A stretch of DNA of 64,000 nt from an uncultured delta proteobacterium. Its GTDB lineage: Bacteria > Desulfobacterota > Binatia > Binatales > Binataceae. The position numbers were made by a program, and so were the translations under genes. This document shows, piece by piece, positions 36,534 through 54,056 of the stretch (position 1 is its first letter; each line of letters starts with the position of its first letter). The stretch lies in NCBI GenBank assembly GCA_963794325.1, contig CAWCDG010000007.1, positions 1 through 64,000 of the forward strand, in the 5' to 3' direction. The notes under the pieces were generated by a model. The model searched no databases. It saw only the letters and a list, made by a program, of their open reading frames with translations, and was not told the DNA's origin.

Positions 36534-37500
36534 TTAGTCATGCAGCTCCGGTGTTTTACCGGGCGCCGGTGTAGTGGCGAAGGCAATGGCACCTGTCAAA
36601 CCTCCGACCATCGTAGTCGCAAACCACAGCAATCCCAGCGCGATTGCGTCCTCTTTTCGCATCCCGGCCATCCCGAACAGCACCAGGTAAGCTGATTCAC
36701 GAATCCCCAACCCATTCAAGGTCAGCGGCAGGCTCGCGAACACGTTCGCAATCGGAACGCAAAGAATAAACAAGGTGAGCGGCGCGGTGAGACCAAGACC
36801 GGCTGCCAGGATGTACTGTCCCGCCGCCAGCGTAACCTGCAGCACGATCGACAAAGCGATCGCCGGGAGAAGGGCGGCAGGATGATGCAGATACGGCGCA
36901 ATGATTCCGCCCGCGCGGCGAACAGGCCGCGGCATTAGATGAATCAGGCGCGCGACGAGCGGACCTGCAAGAAATCCAGCGAAGGCAATCGCACCGACCA
37001 CGACGCGTCGGCGTGATTACCGACGATGGAATCGATGCGAAGTTCAGAAAGATCGCGGAAAAGGCCGCCAGCCAGAACAGACCGATCAACCCAACGCCGC
37101 GATCGGCGACCACCGACGCGATTGCCTCGCCCATCCTGCCGTGCCGCCGCCCGAGATAAACGGATCGCGCCGCGTCGCCGCCGAGCAATCCCGGCACGAA
37201 CAAGTTGGTAAACATCCCGACGAAGGTGTAGGCGAGGAACTCGCTATACCGGCCGTGCACTTTCAGAATCGCGGCGAGCAGCCGCCATCGATAAGCACAC
37301 ATCGCCTGACCCGCGACATACAGCGCGACAACCGCGGCAAAGTACGCGGGACGCTCACGGCTCAGGATTCGAAAAATCGGACGCGCATCGTAACGCCACA
37401 GCAACACCGCAACAACCGCGAGGCCCAACCCTGCGCGGATCGCAAACGCGCGATAGGGATGCGACGGCGCGGGTTGCTCAGTTGACGGTGATTGAGTCAC
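36534..37500 (-). CDS. Lysylphosphatidylglycerol-synthase TM-domain / flippase-like protein (UPF0104), interrupted by a 1-nt frameshift near 37005
   Basis: AYRWRLL, FTNLFVPGLLGGDAAR, VVADRGVG in one frame; SLPLTLNGLGIRE in another; removing one base near 37005 joins them. Start approximate (GTG 37500 or 37518). Confidence 0.78.
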
Positions 37501-39213
37501 GGCGCGAGATTCGTTCACGTCGGATAATTGCCCTCTTCTTTCCTTCGACGCGATCACGTCGAACTCGCCGAAGCGTTCCTTCATTCGCGCGAGGTCGCCA
37601 GCGTCGAGCACCACTACGACGCGTTCCGGCTGGTCCCATCGACGAAACATCTGATCGTCATTGTTCATGAACCAATCGTGCGCGTCCGGGTCGAGTCGCG
37701 ATCCGAAGTCGAGTTCGGTGCGACCGCCGAGCAGCACGACGCGCTTGCGATTGTAAAACGGCAGCGACTGAACGTAGCGATGGTAGCAGATGATATTCGC
37801 GTCGGGCGCCTTTTCGGCGATCGCGCGGCTGAGTGCTGCGTATGAACGCATCGGCTCGGTTTCGAGCCGCGCCCATCCGCCCGCGATCAACGCGAACGCA
37901 AGCGTAACGACGATAGCTCCGAGCCCGAGAGCCGTGCGTCGCATCACGAACATCAACGTTGTGACCGCGCCGCCAACTACCAGTATCGCACCGATCGCGT
38001 ACAACGCAGGGCGCGCGGCCATTACGTACGGTGTCCGGAATTGCGGCGCCGCGATCGCCGTGATGATCACGCCGACGCCTAACAGCGCCAGCATCGGCCC
38101 GCTTTCGATGAGGATCCGCGAATCGGGCGGTCTGCGCGCGGCGCGCGAGTCTGCGGACGGCCATGCGCATGCCACGAGTCCGTCAGCGATCAGTACGGCC
38201 AGCGGCGGGACAGCGGGCAGGATGTACGGGATCAGTTTTGCGCTGGCGCAGGAGAAAGCCACCACCGTGACGCTCGCCGCGATGAGGCAGAAACTCCGGG
38301 CCGGGTTGCGCGCACTCTCGCGCCAGGTGAGGAACGGCACGAGCAGCGTCCACGGCAACAGTCCGATCGCGAGCACAGGAAGGTAAAAGTAGAACGCTTC
38401 GCTGTGGCTGTAGTCGGTTTCGAACACGCGCCGCAGATGCTCACCGACGAAATAGAAGTTGGCGAAGCCTGGCTCGCGGATCGTCATCATCACAAACCAC
38501 GGCGCCGCGATCAGCGTGGTGAGCAGGAGTCCCGGCATCGCGCGGAATTTCGCGATTGCGCCGCGCAGTTCGCGCTTCAGTGCGAGCCAAATCAGCATCG
38601 ACAGAATTGGCAGCGCCGCGCCGACCGGCCCCTTCGTCATAACGGCCAGACCCATCGCGACGTACGCTATCCAGCACCAGCGACCGCCTTCATGCCAGTG
38701 CAGGTACAGCGAGAATGTCGCGATTGTCACCAGCGCCGTCAGCAGCATGTCGGTGGTGAGGACTTGCGCCATCAACGCGTACAGAGGAGTCGTCGCGAGA
38801 ATCGCGGCAGCGAGAATCGCATGGCGGCGGCCGAATGCGCGCAGTGCGAATACGTACGTGGCGAGTATTCCGGTGATTGCGGACAACGCGACCGGGAGGC
38901 GCGCGGCAAATTCCGACACGCCAAAGATCCAGAAGGAGAGGGTCGTCAGCCAGTAGAGCAGCGGCGGCTTCTCGACGTACGCGACGTAGTTGAGATGGGG
39001 CACGAGCAGGTTGCCGCTCTGGAGCATCTCGCGCGCGATCTCAGCGTAGCGCGCCTCGTCGGGTTCCCACAGGCCGAATGAACCGAGGTGAAACATGCAG
39101 ACCGCCAAGGAAAGCGCGACGATTGCCGCGAGGTCGAATGCGCTCGGCGTCGCAGCAGCCGACGGCGCGGCGAAACTGGGCGATCCGATTTCGTTGCGTG
39201 CGGTCCCGGACAC
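37478..39213 (-). CDS. ArnT/GT83-like membrane glycosyltransferase; 3' end probably frameshifted near 37548
   Basis: LWEPDEARYAEIAREM, EKPPLLYW, MTKGPVG, KLIPYILP; restoring one base gives C-terminus ...EGKKRAIIRR...TVN* ending at 37478. Start uncertain (GTG 39213). Confidence 0.8.
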
Positions 39214-39244
39214 GAGGGTTGAGTCTAACGTGCCGATGGGATGC

Positions 39245-40960
39245 CTAATAGCCGACGGCGCCGCCGCCTTTACGCGGGTCGGCCGCGCCACGGAGATTTG
39301 CGGGCGCGATTGTGATCGCACCGACGGCTCCGAGATTCGGCACGACCTTGAGCTTGTAGCCCATCTGCTCGAGCGCGGTGCGCGTCGTCGCGGGCATTGC
39401 CTCTTCGACGATCACGACGTCCGGCGCGGCCTGCTCATGAATTCGCGGCTCGCCGACGGCGCTCGTCGCGTCGAGATGGAACGCGAGAATGTTGAGCGTG
39501 ACCTGCAAAACTCCGCTGATGATTGTTGGACCGCCGGAGCCGCCGGTCGTCATCACTGGCACGCCGTTCTTCGTCACGATTATCGGCGTCATCGAAGAGA
39601 GCGGGCGCTTGCCGCCGCGCACCTCATTGGCGCGCTCACCTTCGAGGTGATACGCGTTCGGCACGCCGGGCGCGACGGCGAAATCGTCCATCTCATCGTT
39701 GAGGATGATGCCCAGTGCGGGCACGCTGACCTTGGCACCGAACACGGTGTTGATGGTGGTGGTCAGCGCGACGACATTGCCGTCCTTGTCGGCGACGAGC
39801 AGATTGGTGGTGCCGTGATCGTGCGCCGGCGCAACAGGTGGCGGCGACGTTTTCGGATGCATCGCGCGCTCGCGCAGTTGCTGGATGTTGTCCTTGCCCA
39901 GGAGCTTCTCAATCTCGACGCCCACAAACTCCGGATCAGCATATCGCTCGCGATCGATGAAACCCTGGCGCATCACTTCGATCAGACGCGCGAGGTACGG
40001 CGGCGAGTCGACGCCGAGTCCCGCCAGATGTCCCGAATCAAGCGCGCCGAGCATCTCGAGGACGACCCCGCCCGACGACGGCGGCGGCATCGCATAAACA
40101 TCGTAGTCCTCGTAGCGATGGTGAATCGGGTTGCGCCAGTCGGGACGGTAGTTCGAGAGATCGGTGTTGCTGATCAGCCCGCCGTGCGCCTTTATGAATG
40201 CGACGAGCGCGGCAGCGACCTGGCCGTGATAGAAGTTCGTGACCGGATCGTCGCCGAGGCTCTTCAGAGTTGCCGCCAGATTCTTTGCGACGATCGTGTC
40301 GCCGGCTTTGAGCGGAGAGCCGTCGGGTTTGAGGAAAACCTGGCTCAGCCCGGGATCGCTTTTCAGCTTCGGCGCGAGCATCGCGATCTCCTTCGCCAGG
40401 TGATCGCTAGCGAGGTAACCATCGCCGGCTAATTTCTCCGCAGGCGCCGCGATCTGCTGAAACTTCATCGTGCCAAAACGCCTTAGCGCCGCGTCGATAC
40501 CCGCAATCTCACCCGGCACGCCAACCCCGAGGATGCCGTCGCGGGCCAAATCCTCATCGGGCTGGCCGTTGCGCATGTACATGTCGGGACGAGCCTGAAG
40601 CGGCGCGGCCTCGCGATAGTCGAGTGCGTAGAAGGCATGCGCCTTCGCCATATAGATGAGCATGAAGCCGCCGCCGCCGATTCCGCACGCAGCAGGGTTG
40701 GTAACCCCGACCGCCAATTCAGTGGCAACCGCGGCGTCAACGGCGTTACCGCCTTGTTTGAGAACCTCGACGCCGGCGCGCGCGGCGTCCTCGCTTTCCG
40801 ACACCACCATCCCGTGGACACCGGCGGCGGAGGTTTGTGGAGGGGCTGACTCCGCATCGGAACGCGGCGCAACCGACAGCGCGAGCGCGAGAATGATTAA
40901 CGGGGCAATCGCACGCGAGCGGGCGGCGGCCAAAAGATGAGTCCGGCGTGGCATCAACAT
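39245..40960 (-). CDS. ggt: Gamma-glutamyltransferase (exported)
   Basis: GGNAVDAAVA, GIGGGGFM, MPPPSSGG, HGTT autocleavage Thr, NDEMDDF, RPLSSMTP, GSGGPTI; start approximate. Confidence 0.93.
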   Translation of the reverse strand: MLMPRRTHLLAAARSRAIAPLIILALALSVAPRSDAESAPPQTSAAGVHGMVVSESEDAARAGVEVLKQGGNAVDAAVATELAVGVTNPAACGIGGGGFMLIYMAKAHAFYALDYREAAPLQARPDMYMRNGQPDEDLARDGILGVGVPGEIAGIDAALRRFGTMKFQQIAAPAEKLAGDGYLASDHLAKEIAMLAPKLKSDPGLSQVFLKPDGSPLKAGDTIVAKNLAATLKSLGDDPVTNFYHGQVAAALVAFIKAHGGLISNTDLSNYRPDWRNPIHHRYEDYDVYAMPPPSSGGVVLEMLGALDSGHLAGLGVDSPPYLARLIEVMRQGFIDRERYADPEFVGVEIEKLLGKDNIQQLRERAMHPKTSPPPVAPAHDHGTTNLLVADKDGNVVALTTTINTVFGAKVSVPALGIILNDEMDDFAVAPGVPNAYHLEGERANEVRGGKRPLSSMTPIIVTKNGVPVMTTGGSGGPTIISGVLQVTLNILAFHLDATSAVGEPRIHEQAAPDVVIVEEAMPATTRTALEQMGYKLKVVPNLGAVGAITIAPANLRGAADPRKGGGAVGY

Positions 40961-41037
40961 CAGGGCTTTACTAACAGCCATCGCCGACCGATGAAAGGTA
41001 TGCACGAGCTCAATTGTGGTGCCGTCGGAAAATCCGA

Positions 41038-42240
41038 TTAACTGCCTGACAGCCGAAGTTCGCTGAGTCCGCGCAGGGCCATCGAGCCGCGATACTCCAG
41101 TTTGGCCTGTGGGTTGGCCAGTTGCAGTCGTGGGAATTTGTTCAGCATCGATTCGATAGCGATTGCGCCTTCCAGCCGCGCGAGCGGTGCGCCGAGGCAG
41201 AAGTGAATTCCCTCGCCGAACGACACATGCTCGTTGGGATCGCGTGCGACGTCGAAGTTTTCGGGATTCGGGAAATGTGCGGGGTCGCGATTTGCGGCCG
41301 CCAGCAGGATGAAAGCGAGACTGCCCATAGGAATCTCGGTGCCGCCGACGCTGGTCGAAGCCGTCGGCATCCGCACCGTCATCTGGACGGGCGGGTCGTA
41401 GCGCAGCATCTCCTCGATCGCTTTTGGGATCAGATCGCGGCTGGCACGCAGGCGATTCTGCTGCTCGGGATTGCGGCATAGCGCGAGCAGGCCGTTACCG
41501 ATCAGGTTGGTGGTCGTCTCGTTCCCGGCCAATAGCAACAACACGACGAACGCCAGCAGCTCGTTTTCGTTGAGCGCGTCGGACTCGTCTCGTGCGGTGA
41601 CCAACGCGCTGATCAAGTCATCGGCGGGATTTGCGCTCCGTTGCTTGATTGCCTCGGCCAGGTAGCGGCGGAGTTCATCCTTGGCGGCGAGGCCGGCCGC
41701 AGACGGGCCGGCCCCCATCTCCTGGCCGAATGAGCTGATCAGATCGTTGGACCATTGCTTGAATTGCGCGTGATCGTTGGGTGACACCCCGAGCATCTCC
41801 GCGATCACAATCACCGGCAGCGGATTGGCGAGCGCCGCCATCGCTTCGATTCCGCTTTCGCCGGAGTCCGTCGCGCGGCTCAACAAGTCGTTGGTTATCT
41901 CACGAACCCGCGGCTCGAGCTCGCGCACGCGTCTCGGCGTAAAAGCCTTGCTGACCAGCCGTCGCAGGCGCGAGTGCACTGGAGGATCGGCGGTGAGAAT
42001 CGTCGGCGCGCCGCCGAATGGATCGATGCGCTCGCGAAATGGAATCTCCGGACGCCGAACGGTGAAACGCTCGTGGTCGTGCAGCACCGTGACGACATCG
42101 TCATAGCGCGCGATAATGGTCGTCGGCAGGAAGAGTTGAAGCTGTCGGGGAGGACCGTCCAGCAGCGCGGGGAAGTGCGGATATGGATTCGCGCGAAAAT
42201 CGGGATCGAATGGGTTGAAATAGAAATCAGCCTGAGCCAT
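41038..42240 (-). CDS. Cytochrome P450
   Basis: DPPVHSRLR, AGNETT I-helix, EMLR (ExxR), FGEGIHFCLGAPLAR heme motif. Confidence 0.97.
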   Translation of the reverse strand: MAQADFYFNPFDPDFRANPYPHFPALLDGPPRQLQLFLPTTIIARYDDVVTVLHDHERFTVRRPEIPFRERIDPFGGAPTILTADPPVHSRLRRLVSKAFTPRRVRELEPRVREITNDLLSRATDSGESGIEAMAALANPLPVIVIAEMLGVSPNDHAQFKQWSNDLISSFGQEMGAGPSAAGLAAKDELRRYLAEAIKQRSANPADDLISALVTARDESDALNENELLAFVVLLLLAGNETTTNLIGNGLLALCRNPEQQNRLRASRDLIPKAIEEMLRYDPPVQMTVRMPTASTSVGGTEIPMGSLAFILLAAANRDPAHFPNPENFDVARDPNEHVSFGEGIHFCLGAPLARLEGAIAIESMLNKFPRLQLANPQAKLEYRGSMALRGLSELRLSGS

Positions 42241-43579: not shown

Positions 43580-43603
43580 ACGCGCATCTAACAGGGGGGA
43601 CAG

Positions 43604-44578
43604 ATGGCTCATTTTCTTACCGTACCGATCAATGAGAACGGGATTATCACCGACAAAAACATCGGCATGGAAATCCAACGCGCCGCGGTTGCGCCGTTCG
43701 CGTTTACTGATGTCTTCCTCTACTCGCATGGATGGTGGACCAATGCGACGGCGTCGATGGCCGACTACAATGATTTCTCGATCGGGTTCGCGCGCACGCT
43801 CGAGAGTTTGATCCATCGAAATCCGAACCCACTTCGGAACATCGTGCCTGGGTTTTCCGCGCTTAGCGTCGGCGTGCATTGGCCTTCGATGCTTTCGGAA
43901 GACGACGACTCGATGGTGAATTTCGCGGAAGCCTCCTCTTTTTTCACGATGGAATATCGAGCCGACGATGTTGGCCAGACCGCCGGCTATGCCTTGCTGC
44001 GCCTTCTGCTCCAGAGCCGACAAGGCGCAACGCCGTTCAGGTTTCATCTGCTCGGGCACAGTTTCGGCTGTCGAGTAGTGCTGTCGACCCTGGAACAATT
44101 GACCAAAGACGCAAATACCCTGCCGCTGGCTGCTCAAACCCAGTTCAACGTGGTTTTGATAGAAGCTGCCGCGGATTCCGATTCGTTGGCACCGGGCAGG
44201 CTCTATGAAAATATTTTGACGAGTATCCCGAACATCAAAATACTGGCCACCACGTCGGCTAACGACAGAGCGGTGAACACGTTGTATCCGGTGGCGCAGG
44301 GACTCGCGCACATCTTCAATCACCCGCTGGATCCTATTACTGCGATGGGTGCGGTGGGGTTCGACACTGCCCCTGCACCGAACGCCATTCAAAACATTGC
44401 GATCGGCCCTGGAAACGTTCCGGCGCCGGCTGGAAGGTTTGTAGTGGCGGACCTTACGCCGCTCCATCAAGCTCGACGTCTTGCCGACCCGACGGTGTAC
44501 AACAGCTTTTCGGGCCAACATTCAGACATTTATCTGGACGAGATTTACCAGCTGATCGCCATGTTTCTCGGTACTTGA
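43604..44578 (+). CDS. Alpha/beta-hydrolase-fold protein
   Basis: YSHGW oxyanion segment, GHSFG nucleophile elbow, ND and GQHS candidate acid/His. Confidence 0.8.
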   Translation: MAHFLTVPINENGIITDKNIGMEIQRAAVAPFAFTDVFLYSHGWWTNATASMADYNDFSIGFARTLESLIHRNPNPLRNIVPGFSALSVGVHWPSMLSEDDDSMVNFAEASSFFTMEYRADDVGQTAGYALLRLLLQSRQGATPFRFHLLGHSFGCRVVLSTLEQLTKDANTLPLAAQTQFNVVLIEAAADSDSLAPGRLYENILTSIPNIKILATTSANDRAVNTLYPVAQGLAHIFNHPLDPITAMGAVGFDTAPAPNAIQNIAIGPGNVPAPAGRFVVADLTPLHQARRLADPTVYNSFSGQHSDIYLDEIYQLIAMFLGT

Positions 44579-44583
44579 AAGTC

Positions 44584-44617
44584 AGCGGCGGCGGACTTGA
44601 TAGTCCGCCGCCGCTTT
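44584..44617. terminator. GC-rich hairpin between convergent genes (bidirectional terminator or REP-like)
   Basis: Perfect 14-bp stem AGCGGCGGCGGACT-TGAT-AGTCCGCCGCCGCT. Confidence 0.7.
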
Positions 44618-44631
44618 CGCATCAGACTCGA

Positions 44632-45642
44632 TCACGCTTCGACCCGGCTCGGGCGCATCCGGAGAATCGGGTGCGAGTTGCCCAGGCATTCGCGCAGCAC
44701 TCCGAGATAGCTGCGCGACACGTGAACCGACTCCTTGAAGTCCGACTTCGACATCAGCACGCGATGGAGTTCCGGCAACCGGTAGAACGGAACGCTCGGG
44801 TAGAAATGATGTTCGATGTGATAGTTCACGTTCTTCGGCGCGACGAAGATGTGCGCTAGCAGCGACGCGCCCGTGGACCTGGTCTGCGCGTACGCGTTGG
44901 CGCGACCTTCGATTGCGGAATGTTCGGCGATGCTGCGGATGCGGAAGATCACCGTCATCCAGGTGAACAACGGCACGAACCAGTACATAAGGAGAAGGTG
45001 AATCGCGCCGAACCACGCGAGCACTGTGATCACTGCGGCGTAGAAGCCGTATCGTGCCACCAGGAACCCGCGACTCACGCCCGCGTCCCGCGAGAGAAGC
45101 ATCAACGCCAGCTTGAGATAGTAGATAGCGCCCAGGCCCGACAGATCGCGAAGCATCAACAGAGTGAGCCGGCTCCAATGCTTCGGAAATACCCACGTCG
45201 GGTCACCCTGGCGGCGCGCCCAGTCGGGATCCTTGGCAGAATTCAGGTAGCGATGATGCGCGAAATGGTTCCTGCGATAGGCGCGTGCCGAAATGAGGTT
45301 CGGCCACGCGAGGATAATTTCGGCGGTCCAATCGTTCAGGCGCCGGCCACGGAAGAGGCGATAATGAACGCCGTCGTGCATCAGGATGAGTAGCGCGTGT
45401 TGGCGCGCACCGATGAACGCCACGGTCAGAAGGTACAGCGCGAGGTTGAAATGACGCTGGCATAGAAAGATCGCAGTCAGTATCAGCATCCATTCCGCGA
45501 CGATATGAAGAGTGCTCCGGAGCGGGCTTAGCGCGGACAAATCGCGCAGCTCCTCCCTGGTCAGCTTGACCGGGATGGCGCCGTCGAGATCGTCGGACGG
45601 GCGTTCCTGTGCACCGCGATCTTTGGTCAGATCGATATTCAT
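44632..45642 (-). CDS. Membrane di-iron desaturase/hydroxylase (fatty acid desaturase family, RtxC-like)
   Basis: His boxes HDGVH, HFAHH, HIEHH plus AEH; PSVPFYRLP; GAGG RBS. Confidence 0.9.
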   Translation of the reverse strand: MNIDLTKDRGAQERPSDDLDGAIPVKLTREELRDLSALSPLRSTLHIVAEWMLILTAIFLCQRHFNLALYLLTVAFIGARQHALLILMHDGVHYRLFRGRRLNDWTAEIILAWPNLISARAYRRNHFAHHRYLNSAKDPDWARRQGDPTWVFPKHWSRLTLLMLRDLSGLGAIYYLKLALMLLSRDAGVSRGFLVARYGFYAAVITVLAWFGAIHLLLMYWFVPLFTWMTVIFRIRSIAEHSAIEGRANAYAQTRSTGASLLAHIFVAPKNVNYHIEHHFYPSVPFYRLPELHRVLMSKSDFKESVHVSRSYLGVLRECLGNSHPILRMRPSRVEA

Positions 45643-45729: not shown

Positions 45730-46413
45730 TCAGGCATGCGCAGGCATGGCAGGTATCTCGCCGACACCGAGCGGACAGCGATTTGCCGCCGGCCTCAACC
45801 GATCGGATCTGTCGAACCGGACGGTGCGATAGTTGTCCGGGGTTTCGATCTTCAAGCGATGTACATTTGAGGTGAGTTTCGCCAGCGCTTCTCCCTCGAG
45901 GACCATCGGCTGAACCCAGAGCCGGCCGTCGTCCGGTCCCTCGAGATACGGATACTCCACGGGCACGCCAGCCTTGACGAAGCCCATAGCCCTGTAAAAT
46001 CCGCCATGATCGGACCTTCCCGCAGCCAGATAGACGAGTACCGCGTCAGGATTCCTGCGAACGACCTGAACTGCGATTCCGCGCCACGCGTGCATGCCAG
46101 CGCCGCGTGACAGCGACCAATGATCGCTGCATTCCAGCACCGATTGAGGCGCGTATCGCGAGAGGTCTGGCTCACTACAGCTTTGCGGATGGGCGGCGAG
46201 GTCATGAAGTGCGACCCCGGCTGTCATGCTCTGCAAGCCGTCGTGGTCGATTTCGAACAATCCATAGAGGCCTGCGGCGGCCAGACGCCGCTTATTTTTC
46301 GCCTGCGAGCGGCCGATATCTCTGAAGGTGGCCCCGTGGCGAGCGCGTGCTTGTGCAAGGCGTTGGGCGAACAGGTCTCGTTCGTCCTCTGTCGTTAAGA
46401 GGCGCATTTCCAT
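45730..46413 (-). CDS. Hypothetical GNAT-fold acyltransferase (LuxI/FeeM-like), 227 aa
   Basis: AGGAG RBS 7 nt before ATG 46413; MRLLTTEDER start, VLECSDHWS strand, GAG, HGGFYRAMGF..G GNAT motif. Confidence 0.6.
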   Translation of the reverse strand: MEMRLLTTEDERDLFAQRLAQARARHGATFRDIGRSQAKNKRRLAAAGLYGLFEIDHDGLQSMTAGVALHDLAAHPQSCSEPDLSRYAPQSVLECSDHWSLSRGAGMHAWRGIAVQVVRRNPDAVLVYLAAGRSDHGGFYRAMGFVKAGVPVEYPYLEGPDDGRLWVQPMVLEGEALAKLTSNVHRLKIETPDNYRTVRFDRSDRLRPAANRCPLGVGEIPAMPAHA

Positions 46414-46763
46414 TGGATGACTCCTTTTTGTTGCGATGAGCGATTGGCGAAATGAGCGAGGCGAGGTAGTCAAGCCCCGGAGGAGGCGGACTGCGGGCGT
46501 TTGCCGCGCAGCGACCCGGCATAGCAAAAAGTTGACGTTCCAGAGACCTGAAATGTGATAGGAGAATCATTTAAAAGAGAGGATCAGTCATTTTTAACTC
46601 CATCCGATGACAAATAGTCAACACAGAAATGAGCGGATCGCGATGATTGTTGGTCGCATGAAATCGAGATCAGGCGTGGTTTCTTCTAGACGGACGTTGT
46701 GATACGTAAACTAACGTTAGGCGTCTTTAACTGGCGGAGCGTGGTCTGTATAAACTCGGGGTC

Positions 46764-47591
46764 ATGTCGGGGGTGAGCGTGACAGTCAGGGGAACCAGCA
46801 ACAAATCGTCTTTCGACGTGCTCGCGTCGGAAATTGTGAAGGCGAGCAGGTCGCGGACTTCAATCGGCTCTCGCGGTGCGACTGCGGAGATTCAGTCACT
46901 TGAGCAACAGGACTACGGGCGCTCGCTCAGAACATTGCTGGGGCGATCCGAGGTTCGGCAGATTCTGGCGGAAGCGAGAAGCTCCGTGTGGCCGCGCTTG
47001 AACGCCGAATCGGTGCGGTTGGTTTCGCCGACGGAATTCACACGACTATGGTCGCGGTTAGGAGTTCAGTTCAAGTTGGCAAGCCTGCGCGGAGCGGAAG
47101 GACTCGCGCTGTTAGGATTTTACGTGCGGGAAATGGGCGGATCGCGGTTGCCTCTAATCTGCGTGAATACGGCGCATCACCCTGCAGCGATCGGTGCGGC
47201 ATTCTCTCACGAAATGGGCCATCACCTGATCGGACGTCTTTTTGATTCGCACAAACAACACGCCCAGTTGTTGACCAACACAGCCTATGGAGAGCATCTG
47301 TTCGATCGTGAGGAACTGGCTGCGGATATTCTGGTGAGCCTGGGCGTATTTCCCCAGGCGATCGCGCGTAAGATTTTTTTGAAATCCCAGCAGGGGAAAC
47401 AGGCCCGGTCCCGGTCCGCGCCCGCGATACTCCCGGATTCAACCTCGGCGAAGGTGCTCAAATATTTCGAGGATCAATTCGGTCTTACCTTCGGCGGCCA
47501 GCTTCCCTCCGGCAAGAAGCTTCAGTATCTGGCCGGGGTGATTCATTTTGCAAAATTGAGACGCGCTCTTCTGACCGAATACGGCATGTGA
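46764..47591 (+). CDS. IrrE/ImmA-like (M78) zinc metallopeptidase, stand-alone
   Basis: ICVNTAHH...AFSHEMGHHL (HExxH) and downstream EELAADILVSLGVFP (third-ligand ExxA motif). Confidence 0.72.
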   Translation: MSGVSVTVRGTSNKSSFDVLASEIVKASRSRTSIGSRGATAEIQSLEQQDYGRSLRTLLGRSEVRQILAEARSSVWPRLNAESVRLVSPTEFTRLWSRLGVQFKLASLRGAEGLALLGFYVREMGGSRLPLICVNTAHHPAAIGAAFSHEMGHHLIGRLFDSHKQHAQLLTNTAYGEHLFDREELAADILVSLGVFPQAIARKIFLKSQQGKQARSRSAPAILPDSTSAKVLKYFEDQFGLTFGGQLPSGKKLQYLAGVIHFAKLRRALLTEYGM

Positions 47592-47722
47592 GGCCAGCAA
47601 GCATCCGTTCCTGATTCTTCAGGGCACTGCCGCTCCCGGCTTGTGCGTGGATCCGATTTACTTCTAGGATCATTCGGCTCCTAGTTTTAGACTTCGAGGA
47701 AATCTGGTCGAGGAGAGACGAT

Positions 47723-48934
47723 ATGGAACTGGCACCCAAGCGGGCCGGATTCGCGCCGGAACGAATCAATCGGATCACCGAGCATCTCGACAAGAATTAC
47801 GTCGCGCCGGGCAAAATCGCCGGATGCCAGACGCTGGTCGCGCGGCATGGGCACGTCGCCTATTTCAAATCGCAGGGCCTGATGGATCGAGAGCGCCGCA
47901 AGCCTCTCGCGGACGACACGATCTTTCGGCTGTATTCGATGACCAAGCCGATCACGTCGGTCGCATTGATGACGCTCTTCGAGCAGGGGCACTTCCAGCT
48001 CAACGATCCAGTGTCGCGATTCATCCCGGCGTGGCGCGATCACAGAGTGTGGGTATCCGGCGAGGGCGCGAGCATGGAGACGGCGGCGCCGTCGCGGCCG
48101 ATGACGATGCGTCACGTGCTTAGCCACACTGGCGGTCTCACATATGGTGCGACCAATCATCCTGTCGACCGGGCATATCGCGAAGCGGGAGTGGGGCGAG
48201 GTGCCGGCGAGACGCTAAGCGGGTTCGCGGAAAAGCTGGCGAAGGTGCCGCTACGTTATCAGCCGGGAGAGCGCTGGATGTACTCGCTGTCGACCGACGT
48301 ATGCGGTTACCTGGTCGAGGCGATCTCAGGAAAACGTTTCGATCAATACTTGCAGGAAACTATTTTCGACCCGCTCGACATGAAGGATACATCGTTCATG
48401 GTTGCGCCTCGCAAGGCGGATCGTTTTGCCGCCAACTACGAGCGGCAGGCCGATAAGAGTCTCAAGCTGATAGACGATCCGGAGCGGAGTAACTATCTGA
48501 AGCAGCCGACGTTCTTCTCCGGCGGCGGAGGACTTACCGGCACGACCGCCGACTATCTGCGCTTTTGCGAGATGCTGCGCCGCGGCGGCGAGTTGGACGG
48601 TGTGCGCATCCTGGGACCTCGCACAATTGAGTTGATGCATCTTAACCACCTGGCGGGCGGTAAAGACCTGAGCCAGATGGCGATTGGCGCGTTCTCGGAG
48701 ACTGCCTATGAAGGTGTAGGTTTCGGGCTGGGCTTCGCGATGACGCTTGGACAGGTCGAAGCGGGCGCGCTTGGAGGCGGGGACTACTATTGGGGCGGCG
48801 CCGCGTCCACTATATTCTGGGTGGATCCCAAGGAGGACTTGGTCGTGATCTTCATGACCCAGTTGATGCCCTCGGCTACGTTCAATTTCCGTGGACAACT
48901 AAGAAACATCATCTACTCGGCTATCGTCGAGTGA
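47723..48934 (+). CDS. Serine hydrolase, beta-lactamase class C/esterase family
   Basis: IFRLYSMTK (SxxK), LSHTGGL, PGERWMYS, WGGAAST. Confidence 0.92.
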   Translation: MELAPKRAGFAPERINRITEHLDKNYVAPGKIAGCQTLVARHGHVAYFKSQGLMDRERRKPLADDTIFRLYSMTKPITSVALMTLFEQGHFQLNDPVSRFIPAWRDHRVWVSGEGASMETAAPSRPMTMRHVLSHTGGLTYGATNHPVDRAYREAGVGRGAGETLSGFAEKLAKVPLRYQPGERWMYSLSTDVCGYLVEAISGKRFDQYLQETIFDPLDMKDTSFMVAPRKADRFAANYERQADKSLKLIDDPERSNYLKQPTFFSGGGGLTGTTADYLRFCEMLRRGGELDGVRILGPRTIELMHLNHLAGGKDLSQMAIGAFSETAYEGVGFGLGFAMTLGQVEAGALGGGDYYWGGAASTIFWVDPKEDLVVIFMTQLMPSATFNFRGQLRNIIYSAIVE

Positions 48935-50093: not shown

Positions 50094-53000
50094 ATGCCGG
50101 CGGCAGCGAAAGCAAAAACTCGTATCGAAGCGCCCGCAACGCCACCGCGGGCGCACGCTGCGCGGAAGATTTTCAATTCGGCGAAGCTTAGAGCAGAAGC
50201 CGGCGGGCTGACGCTGCTAGGTCTGGCGCTGATCGTAAACGCAGTATTGTTGTGGCCGGAAATTCGCATCGAGCGGGTGCCGGTCAACGACCTGACTTTC
50301 CATATCGCCGCGTCGCAACGCCTGGCGCAGAGTCTGATCACTGGTGACTCATTCCTGGACCCATGGATGTCGCAATGGGCGCTGGGATATCCGCTATGGC
50401 ACTTCTATCAGCCGCTTCCGCACATGATTGCGGGACTGTGGCTAGCTGCCACCAGCCATTTCGCGTCGGCGCCCGCGTCATTTGCGGTGCTCTACTATCT
50501 ATTGATGGTGGCCCTGCCTGCATCCACTTATCTGGGTGCGCGACTATTCGGGTTGGAGCCGATTGCAGCAGGATTTGCTTCCATTCTGATCATTAGTGTT
50601 AGCGAGGTTGGCGATCTCAGCCGTTATGGGGTGGCGTACGGCGCTTACGTTCGGCGCGGGTCGGGCCTTTACACGCAACTAATGTCCTACAACCTGCTGA
50701 TGCCTGCACTAGGACTCGCCAATTACTCGCTCAACACCGGCAGGCGGAAAATTCTATCAGCCAGCCTGGTTGCCTTGACAGCCCTATCGCACGTCGTGTT
50801 CGGTTATGCCGCAATAGTGTCAGTAGCGATAGTGGCCCTGGTTGGCCCGCGGGGCGATCGCTCGCGACGACTCGTCCGCGCCGCAGGGGTCCTGATTCCC
50901 GCCTTCATCTTGCTTGCATGGTTTGTGGTTCCGATGCTGCTGGCGAGCGGCGAAGCGAACCGATGCCGCTGGGACGACGTTTGGAAGTTCGATTCGTGGG
51001 GCGCGAGGAACATATTCGACGCGCTCTTATCCGGGCGCTTTTTCGATGAAGGCAGATTGCCCGTCATGACGTTGGCGCTGGCGGTCTCGTTGATGCTCGC
51101 AGTGTATCGGTGGAAAAGACCGATGGCGCGACGGCTGCTGGTTCTGACCGCGGTCTGGCTGGCGATTTTCTTCGGCCGGGCGACCTGGGGATATTTCATG
51201 ATCGCCCTGGGGCTTCCGCGGACCTTTCATATCAGCCGGTTCGAGTCGGTATTCGAACTGTTTGCCGTACTGTTGATGGCGTGGGCGCTAGCGAAAATAG
51301 TCGCGGCGGCGTGGAAAGCCGGACGTGCAGCAAGGCTGGTGGCTGTGATCGCGTTGAGCGCGATGGCATTAGTAATGTTCGTTGAGCGCTTCAATTTCCT
51401 CACGCTAAGTAACTATTGGGGAGACGAAAGTCTGGCGGGAATTGCGAGTGAAGGATCCGATCTCGAAGCTGCGCTAGCCGACATCCGTACGATCACGCGC
51501 GAACGTCCGGGCCGGGTGTGGTCAGGTCCTACCGGAATGTGGGCCGCTAAGTTCCAAATCGCCAAGACACAGCCCTATACGTTTCTCTCGCTCGCAGGAT
51601 TCGATGAGCTCAGCTTTCTTTACCACAGCTTGTCATGGAGCTCGGACGTGACTGCCGAACTCAACGAACGCGATCCTTACCAGGTCAAGTTATTCGCGAT
51701 GCGTGCCGTGCTGGCGCCCACGAATCAAGAGATGCCTTCCTACTTCAAACGTCGAGCAGTCCACGGCAAGCTCGCGGTTTACGAGGCTTCGAACGAAGGT
51801 TACTTCGGACTGGTGGACATCGGCGCGCGATATGATGGCCCACTAACGACGGTGCTCAATCGGGACTGGCGATGGATGGATGATCCTGGGGTTCGGGCCG
51901 GCGCAGTTGTCGCCTTGGGTGGCGATCTCCGCGGAGTGCCCGAATGGAAGTTGTTCGAATCGCTGCCGCCACTCAATCCGAGCTTCTCGACTCCGCGCGG
52001 CTCAGTAATTTCCGAAAGCAAGCAGGGTGAGACCTACGGCGCGCACCTCGCGGTCCTACGCCCGTGCTATGCGCTGCTTAAGATCACTTACTTCCCGGGC
52101 CAGCAGGCCACCGTTGACGGAAAGCCTGCGCCCATATTTCGCGTGTATCCCAATTTCTGTGCAATTCCAGTCGGGCCGGGAGAGCATCAGATAGAAGTGC
52201 GGTACCATCCGGGACCTATCAAGCCGATATTGCTGGTTACTGGATTCATATTGGTCGGACTTATCGCGCAGGCGATGCGCAAGCCGAACTACGCGGCGAG
52301 CGAGCAAAGAATCGCCGCACGGCTCGCCGAGTTGGCGACACCTTGGGACACTCCGCGCATGCGGACAGCGCTGGCGCTAGCGGTACTGGTCTTACTCTTT
52401 ACGCGCGCGCTTTTCAGCGGCAATCTGCTCATGGGACATGACTCACTAGCCTATCCGCCGCGACTGACCGAATTTGCGAAGGTACTGAGCGACCACCAAT
52501 TCCCGCCAGTATGGGCGCCGGACCTGGGATCAGGCCATGGACAGCCGCTGTTCGAATTCGCACCACCTCTGATCTATGCGACCGCATTGCCTTTCTTCAG
52601 AGGCGGCATGTCACTTGCTGATTCGCTTCAATTCGGATTGGCGATGCTGTTCGCGCTCGGCGCCATCGCAATTTTTCGAATCGGGCGAAAGCTCTCGTTT
52701 TCTCGGCTGGCTTCAGTCGGCGCCGCGGCCGCATGGCTGTTCGCTCCATACCAGGCTCTGGACATTTACGTGTGCGGGCGATTCGCCGAGTCGGCCGCGA
52801 TTGCAGTAGCTCCTATCGGGCTGCTCGGCCTCCTCATAGCTCTTCAGCGTCCGACTGTAATCAGTGTGTTGGTAGGCGCACTAGCTGTGGCGCTGCTGCC
52901 GCTGGCGCACAATGCGGTCGCGTTGCTGATGTTTCCGGCATTTGCGGCAATAGTAGTCGTTCGCGCCGCGGTCTCGGATAGTCGGCTGAGAACCGCAGCC

Positions 53001-54056
53001 GCTGGGGCTTCCGTGCTCGTCGGCGGGCTAGGACTTAGTGCTTTCTTCTGGCTTCCTGCGTTCCTCGAACGCGATCTAGTCAAGACCAACCTTCTGCTGA
53101 CCGGCGTACTAAATTGGACCAACTACATTATCAACCCCTCCCAGTTGCTTTGGTCGCCCTGGGGATACGGCATCTCGATGCGCGGCCCTACGAACGGCAT
53201 CTCTTACTCACTCGGGCTCTTCCACATAGCCTTGGCCGTCGCGGGAGTACTTATCGCGATCCGCGCGGCGAATCGTATTCGCCGCCTTGACGCCTTAGTC
53301 TTCGCCGGCGCGGCGGTGGTCGGCGCACTGTTAGCCACTGACTGGTCATGGAAGATTTGGGAGCACGTCGCCACTCTTCAATATCTCGTTTATCCGTGGC
53401 GTACCTTATGTGTTCCAGCTCTCTTCATGCCATTGCTGGCTCTCTATGCGTTCGACCGGATGGGCCAGAGACTAGCATCTACGGCGATTGTAGTCCTCGT
53501 AGTATTTAACCTGGCGCACACTCAACCCAAGGGAATTGAGACCTATGACGAGGCCTACTATAGTGCAGACCTGATTGCTCAAAAAGGAATCAATACGACC
53601 ACTCGCGAAGAGTATGAGCCGCAAACTGTCTATCACCGTCCCGCGTTTGACCCTGTATCTCTCAAAGGTGTGAGATCGGCGCCGGTCGTATCGCAGCTTG
53701 CGGTCAGCTCGAACCGCCAGTCGTTCACGGTTGACGCGAGCGAGCCCTCGTTAATGCAGGATTCGATCTTCGACTATCCCGGATGGACGGTGCTGGTTGA
53801 CGATAGCGAAGTTGCGACCTCGCCAGCCTCGGATAGCGGCGAGATCACCTTCAATGTCCCATCGGGTATTAATAGCGTCCTGGTTGAGCTACGTCCTACT
53901 CCTGTTCGGCGATGGTCTTACTATGCATCTCTGGCCACGGGCGCAGTGATGATTCTCATAATGACGTTTGCACTGATCACCGGGCGGAAACGTAGGGAGC
54001 CAGTCGATAAGGCTGGATCTACAGCTAAAAAAGCTCGCCCGATGAAAAGCGCTTGA
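50094..54056 (+). CDS. 1320-aa polytopic membrane protein: two tandem GT-C ('PTPS-related'/YfhO-like) modules
   Basis: Module 1 ND..FH...W...WALGYPLWHFYQPL ... YFPGQQATVDG; module 2 HD...Y...WAPDLGSGHGQPLFEFAPPL ... DYPGWTVLVDD. Confidence 0.75.
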   Translation: MPAAAKAKTRIEAPATPPRAHAARKIFNSAKLRAEAGGLTLLGLALIVNAVLLWPEIRIERVPVNDLTFHIAASQRLAQSLITGDSFLDPWMSQWALGYPLWHFYQPLPHMIAGLWLAATSHFASAPASFAVLYYLLMVALPASTYLGARLFGLEPIAAGFASILIISVSEVGDLSRYGVAYGAYVRRGSGLYTQLMSYNLLMPALGLANYSLNTGRRKILSASLVALTALSHVVFGYAAIVSVAIVALVGPRGDRSRRLVRAAGVLIPAFILLAWFVVPMLLASGEANRCRWDDVWKFDSWGARNIFDALLSGRFFDEGRLPVMTLALAVSLMLAVYRWKRPMARRLLVLTAVWLAIFFGRATWGYFMIALGLPRTFHISRFESVFELFAVLLMAWALAKIVAAAWKAGRAARLVAVIALSAMALVMFVERFNFLTLSNYWGDESLAGIASEGSDLEAALADIRTITRERPGRVWSGPTGMWAAKFQIAKTQPYTFLSLAGFDELSFLYHSLSWSSDVTAELNERDPYQVKLFAMRAVLAPTNQEMPSYFKRRAVHGKLAVYEASNEGYFGLVDIGARYDGPLTTVLNRDWRWMDDPGVRAGAVVALGGDLRGVPEWKLFESLPPLNPSFSTPRGSVISESKQGETYGAHLAVLRPCYALLKITYFPGQQATVDGKPAPIFRVYPNFCAIPVGPGEHQIEVRYHPGPIKPILLVTGFILVGLIAQAMRKPNYAASEQRIAARLAELATPWDTPRMRTALALAVLVLLFTRALFSGNLLMGHDSLAYPPRLTEFAKVLSDHQFPPVWAPDLGSGHGQPLFEFAPPLIYATALPFFRGGMSLADSLQFGLAMLFALGAIAIFRIGRKLSFSRLASVGAAAAWLFAPYQALDIYVCGRFAESAAIAVAPIGLLGLLIALQRPTVISVLVGALAVALLPLAHNAVALLMFPAFAAIVVVRAAVSDSRLRTAAAGASVLVGGLGLSAFFWLPAFLERDLVKTNLLLTGVLNWTNYIINPSQLLWSPWGYGISMRGPTNGISYSLGLFHIALAVAGVLIAIRAANRIRRLDALVFAGAAVVGALLATDWSWKIWEHVATLQYLVYPWRTLCVPALFMPLLALYAFDRMGQRLASTAIVVLVVFNLAHTQPKGIETYDEAYYSADLIAQKGINTTTREEYEPQTVYHRPAFDPVSLKGVRSAPVVSQLAVSSNRQSFTVDASEPSLMQDSIFDYPGWTVLVDDSEVATSPASDSGEITFNVPSGINSVLVELRPTPVRRWSYYASLATGAVMILIMTFALITGRKRREPVDKAGSTAKKARPMKSA

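Follow-up and report, generated by a model that had tools for sequence, protein, structure and literature searches.

A divergent M78-type metallopeptidase facing a FeeM/LuxI-like acyltransferase operon in uncultured Binatia: a candidate protease-repressor switch

Introduction

What does a metallopeptidase gene do when it stands head to head with an acyltransferase operon, at the place where a LuxR-type receptor would be expected? This question is raised by a locus in a 64,000-nucleotide stretch of DNA from an uncultured delta proteobacterium of the family Binataceae (class Binatia), which comprises positions 1 to 64,000 of contig CAWCDG010000007.1 (assembly GCA_963794325.1) and is hereafter called the window. 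The initial annotation, made from the letters alone, had read the gene as an IrrE/ImmA-type metallopeptidase and had proposed a protease-switch regulatory system tied to a small-molecule synthase. Our computational analysis supports the gene product as a very divergent zincin of the ImmA/IrrE/CapP type (M78). The reading that we favour, and consider the probable one, is a CapH/CapP-like switch in which the protease and a repressor of the XRE type, a helix-turn-helix (HTH) protein, govern an operon for an N-acyl-amino-acid-type lipid or signal, the window copy acting on an XRE paralogue in trans.

Switches that consist of an M78 protease and an XRE protein are well known as triggers that respond to DNA damage or stress in prophages, in mobile elements, in the Deinococcus radiation response and in anti-phage operons. 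What is new here is the very divergent clade, the gene order, the biosynthetic cargo and a natural loss of the repressor gene. No description of a pairing between an M78 protease and an acyltransferase was found among the matches listed in the literature on COG2856-XRE-acetyltransferase and on Binatota/Binatus.

Results

Identity of the metallopeptidase

The assignment of the window protein to the M78 zincins is supported by motif, by transitive profile matches and by fold, which bears out the family named at the outset. The HEMGH and EELAAD motifs are read in the frame as claimed (Table 1), and the site is conserved: HExxH is kept in 194 of 197 family members of 235-330 aa, the other three being one with HEIARH, one that is apparently frameshifted and one unrelated repeat protein. 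In an alignment of 82 sequences, G118, F119, H149, E150, E184 and R266 are invariant, and H153, A187, D188 and H261 are among the positions conserved in at least 90% of the sequences; in a second alignment the same site in HEMGH, numbered H151 there, is also invariant. The 31 residues between H153 and E184 compare with a glutamate spacing of 29 residues in CapP, whose active site is given as H96/E97/H100/E129 (Lau et al. preprint, excerpt).

Profile evidence comes from the relatives rather than from the window protein itself. Scanned singly, 24 of the 82 aligned relatives match PF06114 (Peptidase_M78) at E ≤ 0.01, the best at 5.1e-6, and no other family is matched by more than one of them. Five of 14 relatives in a separate scan score 16.6-20.3 bits on PF06114, under the 22-bit cut-off. 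Fused HTH-protease forms were absent among 14 relatives scanned (12 of them of 280-399 aa), the longer length class not having been searched, and one relative of 271 aa among 14 scanned carries a PAS domain.

An AlphaFold2 model of the window protease is confident (pLDDT 90.4, pTM 0.89), and its eight top structural matches are CapP, IrrE/PprI and MtPrpR. The aligned part, which runs from residue 56-65 to residue 271-273 and spans residues 6-183 of 278 in CapP and residues 8-167 in IrrE, contains the fold of the M78 peptidase domain in the predicted model. These alignments revise the domain layout first described, in which the peptidase was flanked by extra helical regions on both sides: an N-terminal extension does exist, but it measures about 55-64 residues and not about 90, and the C-terminal helices (residues 198-273) align inside the peptidase domain of CapP and IrrE and are no extra region. 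Because the 275 residues consist of the N-terminal helical segment and the peptidase domain, there is no room for a GAF domain. The adjacent or fused XRE-type HTH partner that belongs to the M78 features is missing in the window and present in relatives.

The open reading frame (ORF) is a real gene under constraint and no chance ORF. In a word-indexed search of 5.8 billion proteins, 450 of 4511 candidates proved homologous at E ≤ 0.001; these 450 are unnamed or 'hypothetical' throughout, none has a precomputed Pfam domain, and the database sources of the close homologues are named 'Candidatus Binatus' or 'Binataceae'. The family is small, as just 172 of 1.84 billion cluster representatives were matched when HMMER was run exhaustively. 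The aligned upstream regions of 17 orthologues favour the GTG at 46779 as the start codon, which suggests that the true protein has 270 aa.

Linkage to the acyltransferase operon

The head-to-head position of the protease gene and the acyltransferase operon, which had been noted from the beginning, was confirmed (Table 1) and recurs throughout one genus. Coordinates from four whole-genome searches were merged into a locus table that covers 25 genomes of this genus, among them the genome of the window (G000; 85% complete, 4.45 Mb). All 24 other genomes of the genus contain the protease family, with between one and six copies per genome, but it was not found in any of 16 genomes that represent other families of the class.

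A divergent GNAT-fold acyltransferase gene faces 41 of the 46 full-length copies, at a distance of 340-540 bp. All 17 orthologues of the window gene have this divergent GNAT gene (340-450 bp) with an oxygenase gene of the FA_desaturase family behind it, and four of them have an XRE gene directly downstream (0-16 bp away or overlapping). In paralogue clade A (14 copies, including one in the window's genome at C3:83471-86364), the GNAT and the oxygenase genes are again always present and an XRE gene lies 4.7-6.4 kb away in 13 cases and adjacent in none. Paralogue clade C (10 copies) combines a divergent GNAT gene and an overlapping downstream XRE gene in every case with no oxygenase gene in any. 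Five solo copies have no divergent GNAT, oxygenase or XRE gene, and a more distant class B of 31 copies has no GNAT and no oxygenase gene; in seven of these an XRE gene lies 580-760 bp upstream on the same strand. One clade-A locus of G024 and one class-B locus of G019 are counted here, and leaving them out makes no difference of substance.

Maximum-likelihood trees of GNAT and protease from the same 32 loci, the protease tree being a quick one, give the same three groups as single branches and the same sub-clades. The group supports are 100/100, 100/100 and 97/92 for GNAT and 100, 96 and a weak 38 for the protease. Because both trees share the three groups and their sub-clades, the GNAT-protease pair was duplicated and inherited as a unit. 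The proposed tie of a protease switch to a small-molecule synthase therefore stands in its genetic part, the partner being an operon whose acyltransferase is FeeM/LuxI-like by structure. The gene neighbourhoods of the homologues, on which the initial annotation had let its reading depend, gave a mixed picture, with homologues beside XRE repressors as well as beside GNAT/desaturase genes and with the HExxH motif conserved.

The acyltransferase is itself an orphan. Its 231 homologues are all without names or domains, none of 45 aligned family members matches any Pfam model at E ≤ 0.05 (PF21926 FeeM, PF13444 and Autoinducer synthase included), and nothing relevant was found when the family profile was compared with PDB sequences. 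The best structural match is FeeM, followed by the acyl-homoserine lactone (AHL) synthases RpaI, TofI, LasI and MesI, and the predicted fold places the protein in the FeeM/LuxI-like branch. Its N-terminal start is kept in 31 loci. Within NCBIfam, the product of the desaturase-family gene, which is the second gene of the operon, comes closest to the models of the arginine hydroxylase GntB (2.5e-33) and the ketolase CrtW, both far below their cut-offs.

A different identity for the GNAT protein, the DNA-modifying GNAT Mom of phage Mu (PF25680), had been proposed by a language-model look-alike search (score 0.93, 193 of 256 shared features). It was rejected: there was no Pfam match, hhalign against Mu Mom gave a probability of 0.9%, the Mom model ranked 45th in a viral structure library, and tblastn returned no match in phage genomes.

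Table 1. Positions of the protease locus features in the window
Feature	Position	Strand	Remarks
Membrane di-iron FA_desaturase-family coding sequence	44632-45642	-	second gene of the acyltransferase operon; PF00487, E 6.8e-40
Orphan GNAT-fold acyltransferase coding sequence	45730-46413	-	227 aa, starts MEMRLL; FeeM/LuxI-like by structure
Shared divergent control region, acyltransferase/protease	46414-46763		350 bp; gap of 340-450 bp in 17/17 orthologous loci
Inverted repeat TGACAAATAGTCA, candidate operator	46608-46620		T[GA]AC-N5-GT[CT]A pattern
Divergent M78-type zinc metallopeptidase coding sequence	46764-47591	+	275 aa as read; GTG at 46779 likely true start
HEMGH, residues 149-153	47208-47222	+	zinc ligands H149 and H153; catalytic E150
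EELAAD, residues 183-188	47310-47327	+	E184 likely third zinc ligand, 31 residues past H153
Junction where relatives carry the XRE and/or 444-aa gene (approximate)	47596-47622		blastn of 47540-47760
Beta-lactamase-family serine hydrolase gene	47723-48934		zinc-dependent alcohol dehydrogenase gene next

The XRE partner gene and its absence from the window

The observation that no HTH, integrase, phage or toxin gene adjoins the protease was confirmed for the window, in which none of these families was found among 16 long ORFs scanned between 36.7 and 56.9 kb. As a property of the family, the stand-alone state did not hold: 14 of the 46 full-length copies (4 of 17 orthologues and 10 of 10 copies of clade C) have an XRE gene that overlaps the protease gene at its 3′ end or follows it directly, and the pair also occurs in another genus and in a distant lineage.

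The XRE partner proteins have 144-153 aa and carry an N-terminal HTH_3 domain (E 1e-13 to 1e-15), an invariant HPEA-like motif, a variable linker and a conserved C-terminal domain, in this order. Their PDB matches span the generic HTH part only, and the weak matches include ImmR, CapH and DdrO (6jq1, E 0.72). The PADLOC capH model is matched at E 3.7e-9, likewise over the generic HTH part.

Four orthologous loci (L035, L039, L041 and L046) retain the XRE gene, and in L035 the sequence ATGA contains both the stop codon of the protease gene and the start codon of the XRE gene. A 444-aa gene with a weak ORF_12_N match follows the XRE gene in L035, L039 and L041 and is present alone, without XRE, in L033, L034 and L048. 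Neither gene is present in the window or in L036, L037, L038, L040 and L045. The 131-bp spacer that follows the window protease is collinear with L036, L045 and L037; in L033, L034, L035, L039, L041 and L048 blastn shows it split around query positions 57-83, with the cassette between the two parts. In both trees the XRE-bearing loci L035, L039 and L041 stand at the base of a 13-member subclade that holds the window. Because of this basal branching, the pattern fits a loss of the linked XRE gene in the window lineage rather than a gain.

Elsewhere, the window's genome encodes five XRE paralogues (C3:343136-343594, C3:6337-6786, C3:78962-79378, C4:302065-302478 and C2:260894-261292). A clade-C-type XRE gene at C3:343136-343594 (L069:6134-6595), which is 86% identical to the XRE gene of L057, has its own protease and GNAT neighbours missing and is flanked instead by a gene for an enoyl-CoA hydratase and by a 169-aa ORF. 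This XRE type occurs at 79-90% identity in 22 of the 25 genus genomes and is paired with a protease in just seven. Another XRE paralogue (C3:3903-6786, L070) lies beside an HTH_17 (excisionase-like) gene and a truncated-looking phage-integrase gene, a set that looks like the remnant of a mobile element.

The shared control region

The alignment of the control regions of the 17 orthologous loci contains conserved blocks. An inverted repeat within it is the candidate operator, its T[GA]AC-N5-GT[CT]A pattern being found at the aligned position in 16 of the 17 regions. The control regions of the paralogue clades have conserved blocks of their own, and an operator common to these clades was sought and not found. 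The extended repeat occurs once on this strand of the genome, compared with 0.74 occurrences expected per strand, and once on each strand in all; because this is near the chance expectation, a regulon for the candidate operator was rejected. No sigma-70 consensus promoters were found between 46300 and 47800. Among control-region ORFs of 20-40 aa, none is conserved as a frame in the 17-region alignment; they were not searched for HTH domains.

Homologues outside the genus

A profile search of 301 genomes across the phylum identified full-length members only in the window's family (G000, G240 and G298) and in the distant lineage f13 (G087 and G042). The genome G298, which belongs to another genus of the same family (g19), contains two loci in which a GNAT gene diverges from a protease-XRE pair, and one class-B pair. 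In f13 (L076, G087 C3:136000-149500; genomes of 1.9 Mb), the operon order is extracytoplasmic function (ECF) sigma factor, protease, XRE and histidine kinase, and the protease matches the family profile with a probability of 99.2% (E 1.4e-19, 218 columns). This operon is divergent from a B12-radical-SAM gene that is followed by a Pfam FeeM gene (PF21926, E 1.5e-17). Between the f13 FeeM protein and the Binatus GNAT no sequence similarity is detectable (hhalign, 0.4% probability); therefore, the regulator pair is opposed by a FeeM-type synthase in each of two lineages, although the synthase genes are non-orthologous. As the class that holds f13 is represented by only two genomes of one genus, it adds no more than one observation.

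The downstream serine hydrolase

The serine hydrolase gene downstream of the protease had been considered as a possible signal-degrading part of the system. It is present in 11 of 16 orthologous loci, with one further locus cut by the contig end. In five of the 11 it abuts the protease, and in the remaining six, other genes lie between the two. The four most distant orthologous loci, which retain protease, GNAT and oxygenase, lack it. The hydrolase and the adjoining alcohol dehydrogenase genes retain 93-97% identity between loci whose proteases share 52-73%. Because of this conservation pattern and of its absence or separation across loci, the hydrolase lies outside the module and is an unrelated housekeeping neighbour by synteny.

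Discussion

In the following scheme, the fold, the catalytic residues, the gene linkage and the XRE loss are established by the analysis, and the repressor proteolysis, the operator, the signal and the product are inferred. The window gene would encode an active, divergent M78 zinc endopeptidase and thus the protease half of a protease plus XRE-repressor switch. In the ancestral operon, the protease gene would have been followed by the overlapping XRE gene, both transcribed away from the operon under control, with one promoter region common to the two sides. The controlled operon, which encodes the FeeM-like N-acyltransferase and here also the membrane di-iron oxygenase, probably yields an N-acyl amino acid or an aminolipid in modified form. 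If ImmA/ImmR, IrrE/DdrO and CapP/CapH are taken as models, the repressor would occupy the control region (candidate TGAC-N5-GTCA) until a stress or metabolic signal lets the protease cut it. Because its linked XRE gene has been deleted, the window copy would need one of the five XRE paralogues as its target in trans.

If this is true, the outputs of the M78-XRE regulator class extend to lipid or signal synthesis, and two orphan protein families gain a testable role. The loci with and without a repressor gene would then form a natural series for substrate choice in trans. This type of switch would here be tied to a biosynthetic cargo in uncultured soil Binatia, with several paralogues per genome, and would recur beside a bona fide FeeM gene in a distant lineage. 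The sequencing runs in which half or more of the locus words occur are soil metagenomes of one study, with no RNA run among the eight listed.

The closest known layout is that of capH and capP, in which the genes for the repressor and the M78 peptidase lie directly upstream of, and opposite to, the controlled operon, share a promoter region with it, and encode a peptidase that cuts the repressor on stress (Lau et al. preprint, excerpt). The Binatia loci share the protease-repressor layout divergent from the regulated operon. They differ in having no central HTH, no C-terminal GAF domain such as CapP has (domain layout in the same excerpt) and no recognisable cysteine-switch loop, in the order of protease then HTH with overlapping genes, and in the cargo, which is no immune system but a FeeM-like acyltransferase to which a di-iron oxygenase may be added; moreover, the window copy is without a linked HTH gene and its protein falls under the Pfam and PADLOC thresholds. 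Compared with IrrE(PprI)/DdrO of Deinococcus, the GAF domain is again missing, the XRE protein matches DdrO through the generic HTH alone, and one divergent operon appears to be controlled instead of a dispersed regulon, given the single occurrence of the candidate operator on this strand of the genome.

ImmA/ImmR of ICEBs1 and the phage-type Xre-COG2856 modules resemble the Binatia pair in that a small single-domain protease without a sensor domain is co-transcribed with an XRE repressor (PMC2701414, excerpt). The Binatia loci differ from them in being chromosomal and not on mobile elements, and in having an acyltransferase gene as the constant partner. According to the same excerpt, Xre-COG2856 modules come with a third component and COG2856 proteins have about 160 aa, whereas the Binatia protease exceeds that length by about 100 residues and has an additional helical segment, of about 55-64 residues, at its N terminus. 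With LuxI/LuxR and FeeM loci there is the likeness that a regulator gene diverges from a synthase gene, the nearest solved structures being the FeeM and AHL synthases named above. The regulator here is a protease with or without XRE and not a LuxR-type receptor, and the synthase is without sequence match to FeeM or Autoinducer synthase.

Several observations weigh against the repressor switch. The window protein has no Pfam match even at E ≤ 10 and none in NCBIfam or PADLOC, and the family profile reached CapP among PDB sequences at only E 0.1. The C-terminal GAF sensor domain of IrrE and CapP is absent, and the scheme names no particular signal. An XRE gene is missing beside the window copy, the family-specific XRE group has no member anywhere in the window, and the XRE of the orthologue clade has no close copy in the window's genome at its 85% completeness, where the best match is 44-46% identical. 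The protease is intact without an adjacent XRE gene in 13 of the 17 orthologous and in all 14 paralogue-A loci, and its main job might not need an adjacent XRE gene. The operator pattern is not common to the paralogue clades, occurring in 15 paralogue regions only once (L064) and at another position. Finally, nearly all loci come from one genus and thus amount to a small number of independent units, roughly the three paralogue clades, to which a sister genus and a distant lineage are added.

The same switch could control a toxic or defensive cargo, with the GNAT protein, with or without the oxygenase, acting as a toxin-like or anti-phage effector as in the CapH/CapP immune operons and in Xre-COG2856 toxin-antitoxin modules. 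CapH/CapP-like pairs head diverse immune operons (Lau et al. preprint, excerpt), toxins are linked to Xre-COG2856 pairs, and a toxin-antitoxin function has been suggested for pairs of GNAT and Xre (PMC2701414, excerpt); the module is patchy and multi-copy within the genus, and the match of the XRE protein to the PADLOC capH model points the same way, through the generic HTH part. We nevertheless regard such a cargo as unlikely. Protease, GNAT and oxygenase have no PADLOC match, the loci have conserved places in the chromosome, where they are surrounded by housekeeping genes and not by genes of mobile elements, the best structural matches of GNAT are lipid and signal synthases (FeeM, AHL) and no tRNA-acetylating toxins, and the membrane oxygenase and the MacB/FtsX-type permease of a paralogue-A locus suit biosynthesis and export.

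The rival that we take most seriously with respect to mechanism is one in which the zincin is a metabolic partner that acts on the acyltransferase pathway, either by trimming or recycling the N-acyl product as an amidohydrolase might, or by maturing or removing GNAT as a protease, with a secondary tie to XRE. It draws on GNAT being a steadier neighbour than the adjacent XRE gene (41 against 14 of the 46 copies), on the catalytic residues being kept in loci without XRE and on the co-duplication of the GNAT-protease pair. However, protease and GNAT genes are divergent and not co-transcribed, whereas the protease and XRE genes overlap, the close structural relatives are all regulators or repressor-cleaving proteases with no small-molecule amidases among them, and f13 keeps the protease-XRE pair together with a different, non-orthologous FeeM gene, all of which makes a metabolic role improbable.

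As a variant of the repressor switch, the protease might be the receptor of an autoinduction or feedback circuit that senses an N-acyl amino acid or an acyl-CoA- or acyl carrier protein-linked intermediate, destroys the XRE repressor and raises expression of the synthase operon. This would explain why the protease stays with the synthase gene where the linked repressor is lost, and would amount to LuxI/LuxR-like logic built from an M78 protease; we see it as a quite improbable, speculative elaboration. A non-proteolytic mode, in which the M78-like domain would act as a regulator by binding a ligand of the acyl-CoA type, as in MtPrpR, which binds CoA (PMC6765138, excerpt), and RamB, is very improbable given the full zinc site H-E-x-x-H...E that is invariant or nearly so family-wide, a protein without its own HTH domain or cysteine-rich cluster region, and an identity to MtPrpR of 8%.

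Additional observations

The second full copy of the module in the window's genome, the clade-A locus introduced above (L071), is a minus-strand operon of GNAT, desaturase, a 398-aa ORF, a MacB/FtsX-type permease and an S9/DLH hydrolase, and an AlgH-like gene that overlaps an XRE gene converges on the operon end. The operon extension may be an export branch for the product. Split module genes were found in four places, namely XRE in L055, GNAT in L059 and desaturase in L036 and in a clade-A copy of G006 (C4:986436-987354); they are products of decay or assembly errors.

Around the locus itself, about 1 kb between the Amidohydro_2 and desaturase genes of the window (43580-44630) has no counterpart in the 16 orthologous loci, where both genes abut. 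An ORF at 43604-44578 (+) has a GHSFG nucleophile-elbow motif and weak DUF900 alpha/beta-hydrolase matches. Farther away, an ArnT/PMT-like plus LPG_synthase_TM ORF at 36697-39321 (-) overlaps a gamma-glutamyltranspeptidase ORF at 39245-41479 (-) by 77 bp; the Pfam match of the latter begins at ORF residue 238, and its real start is probably further downstream. On the other side, a gene for a 1320-aa YfhO-like membrane protein (50094-54056) is present in L034, L037, L040, L041 and L045, split in L036 and absent from L033, L035, L038 and L039, a presence/absence polymorphism in otherwise collinear DNA.

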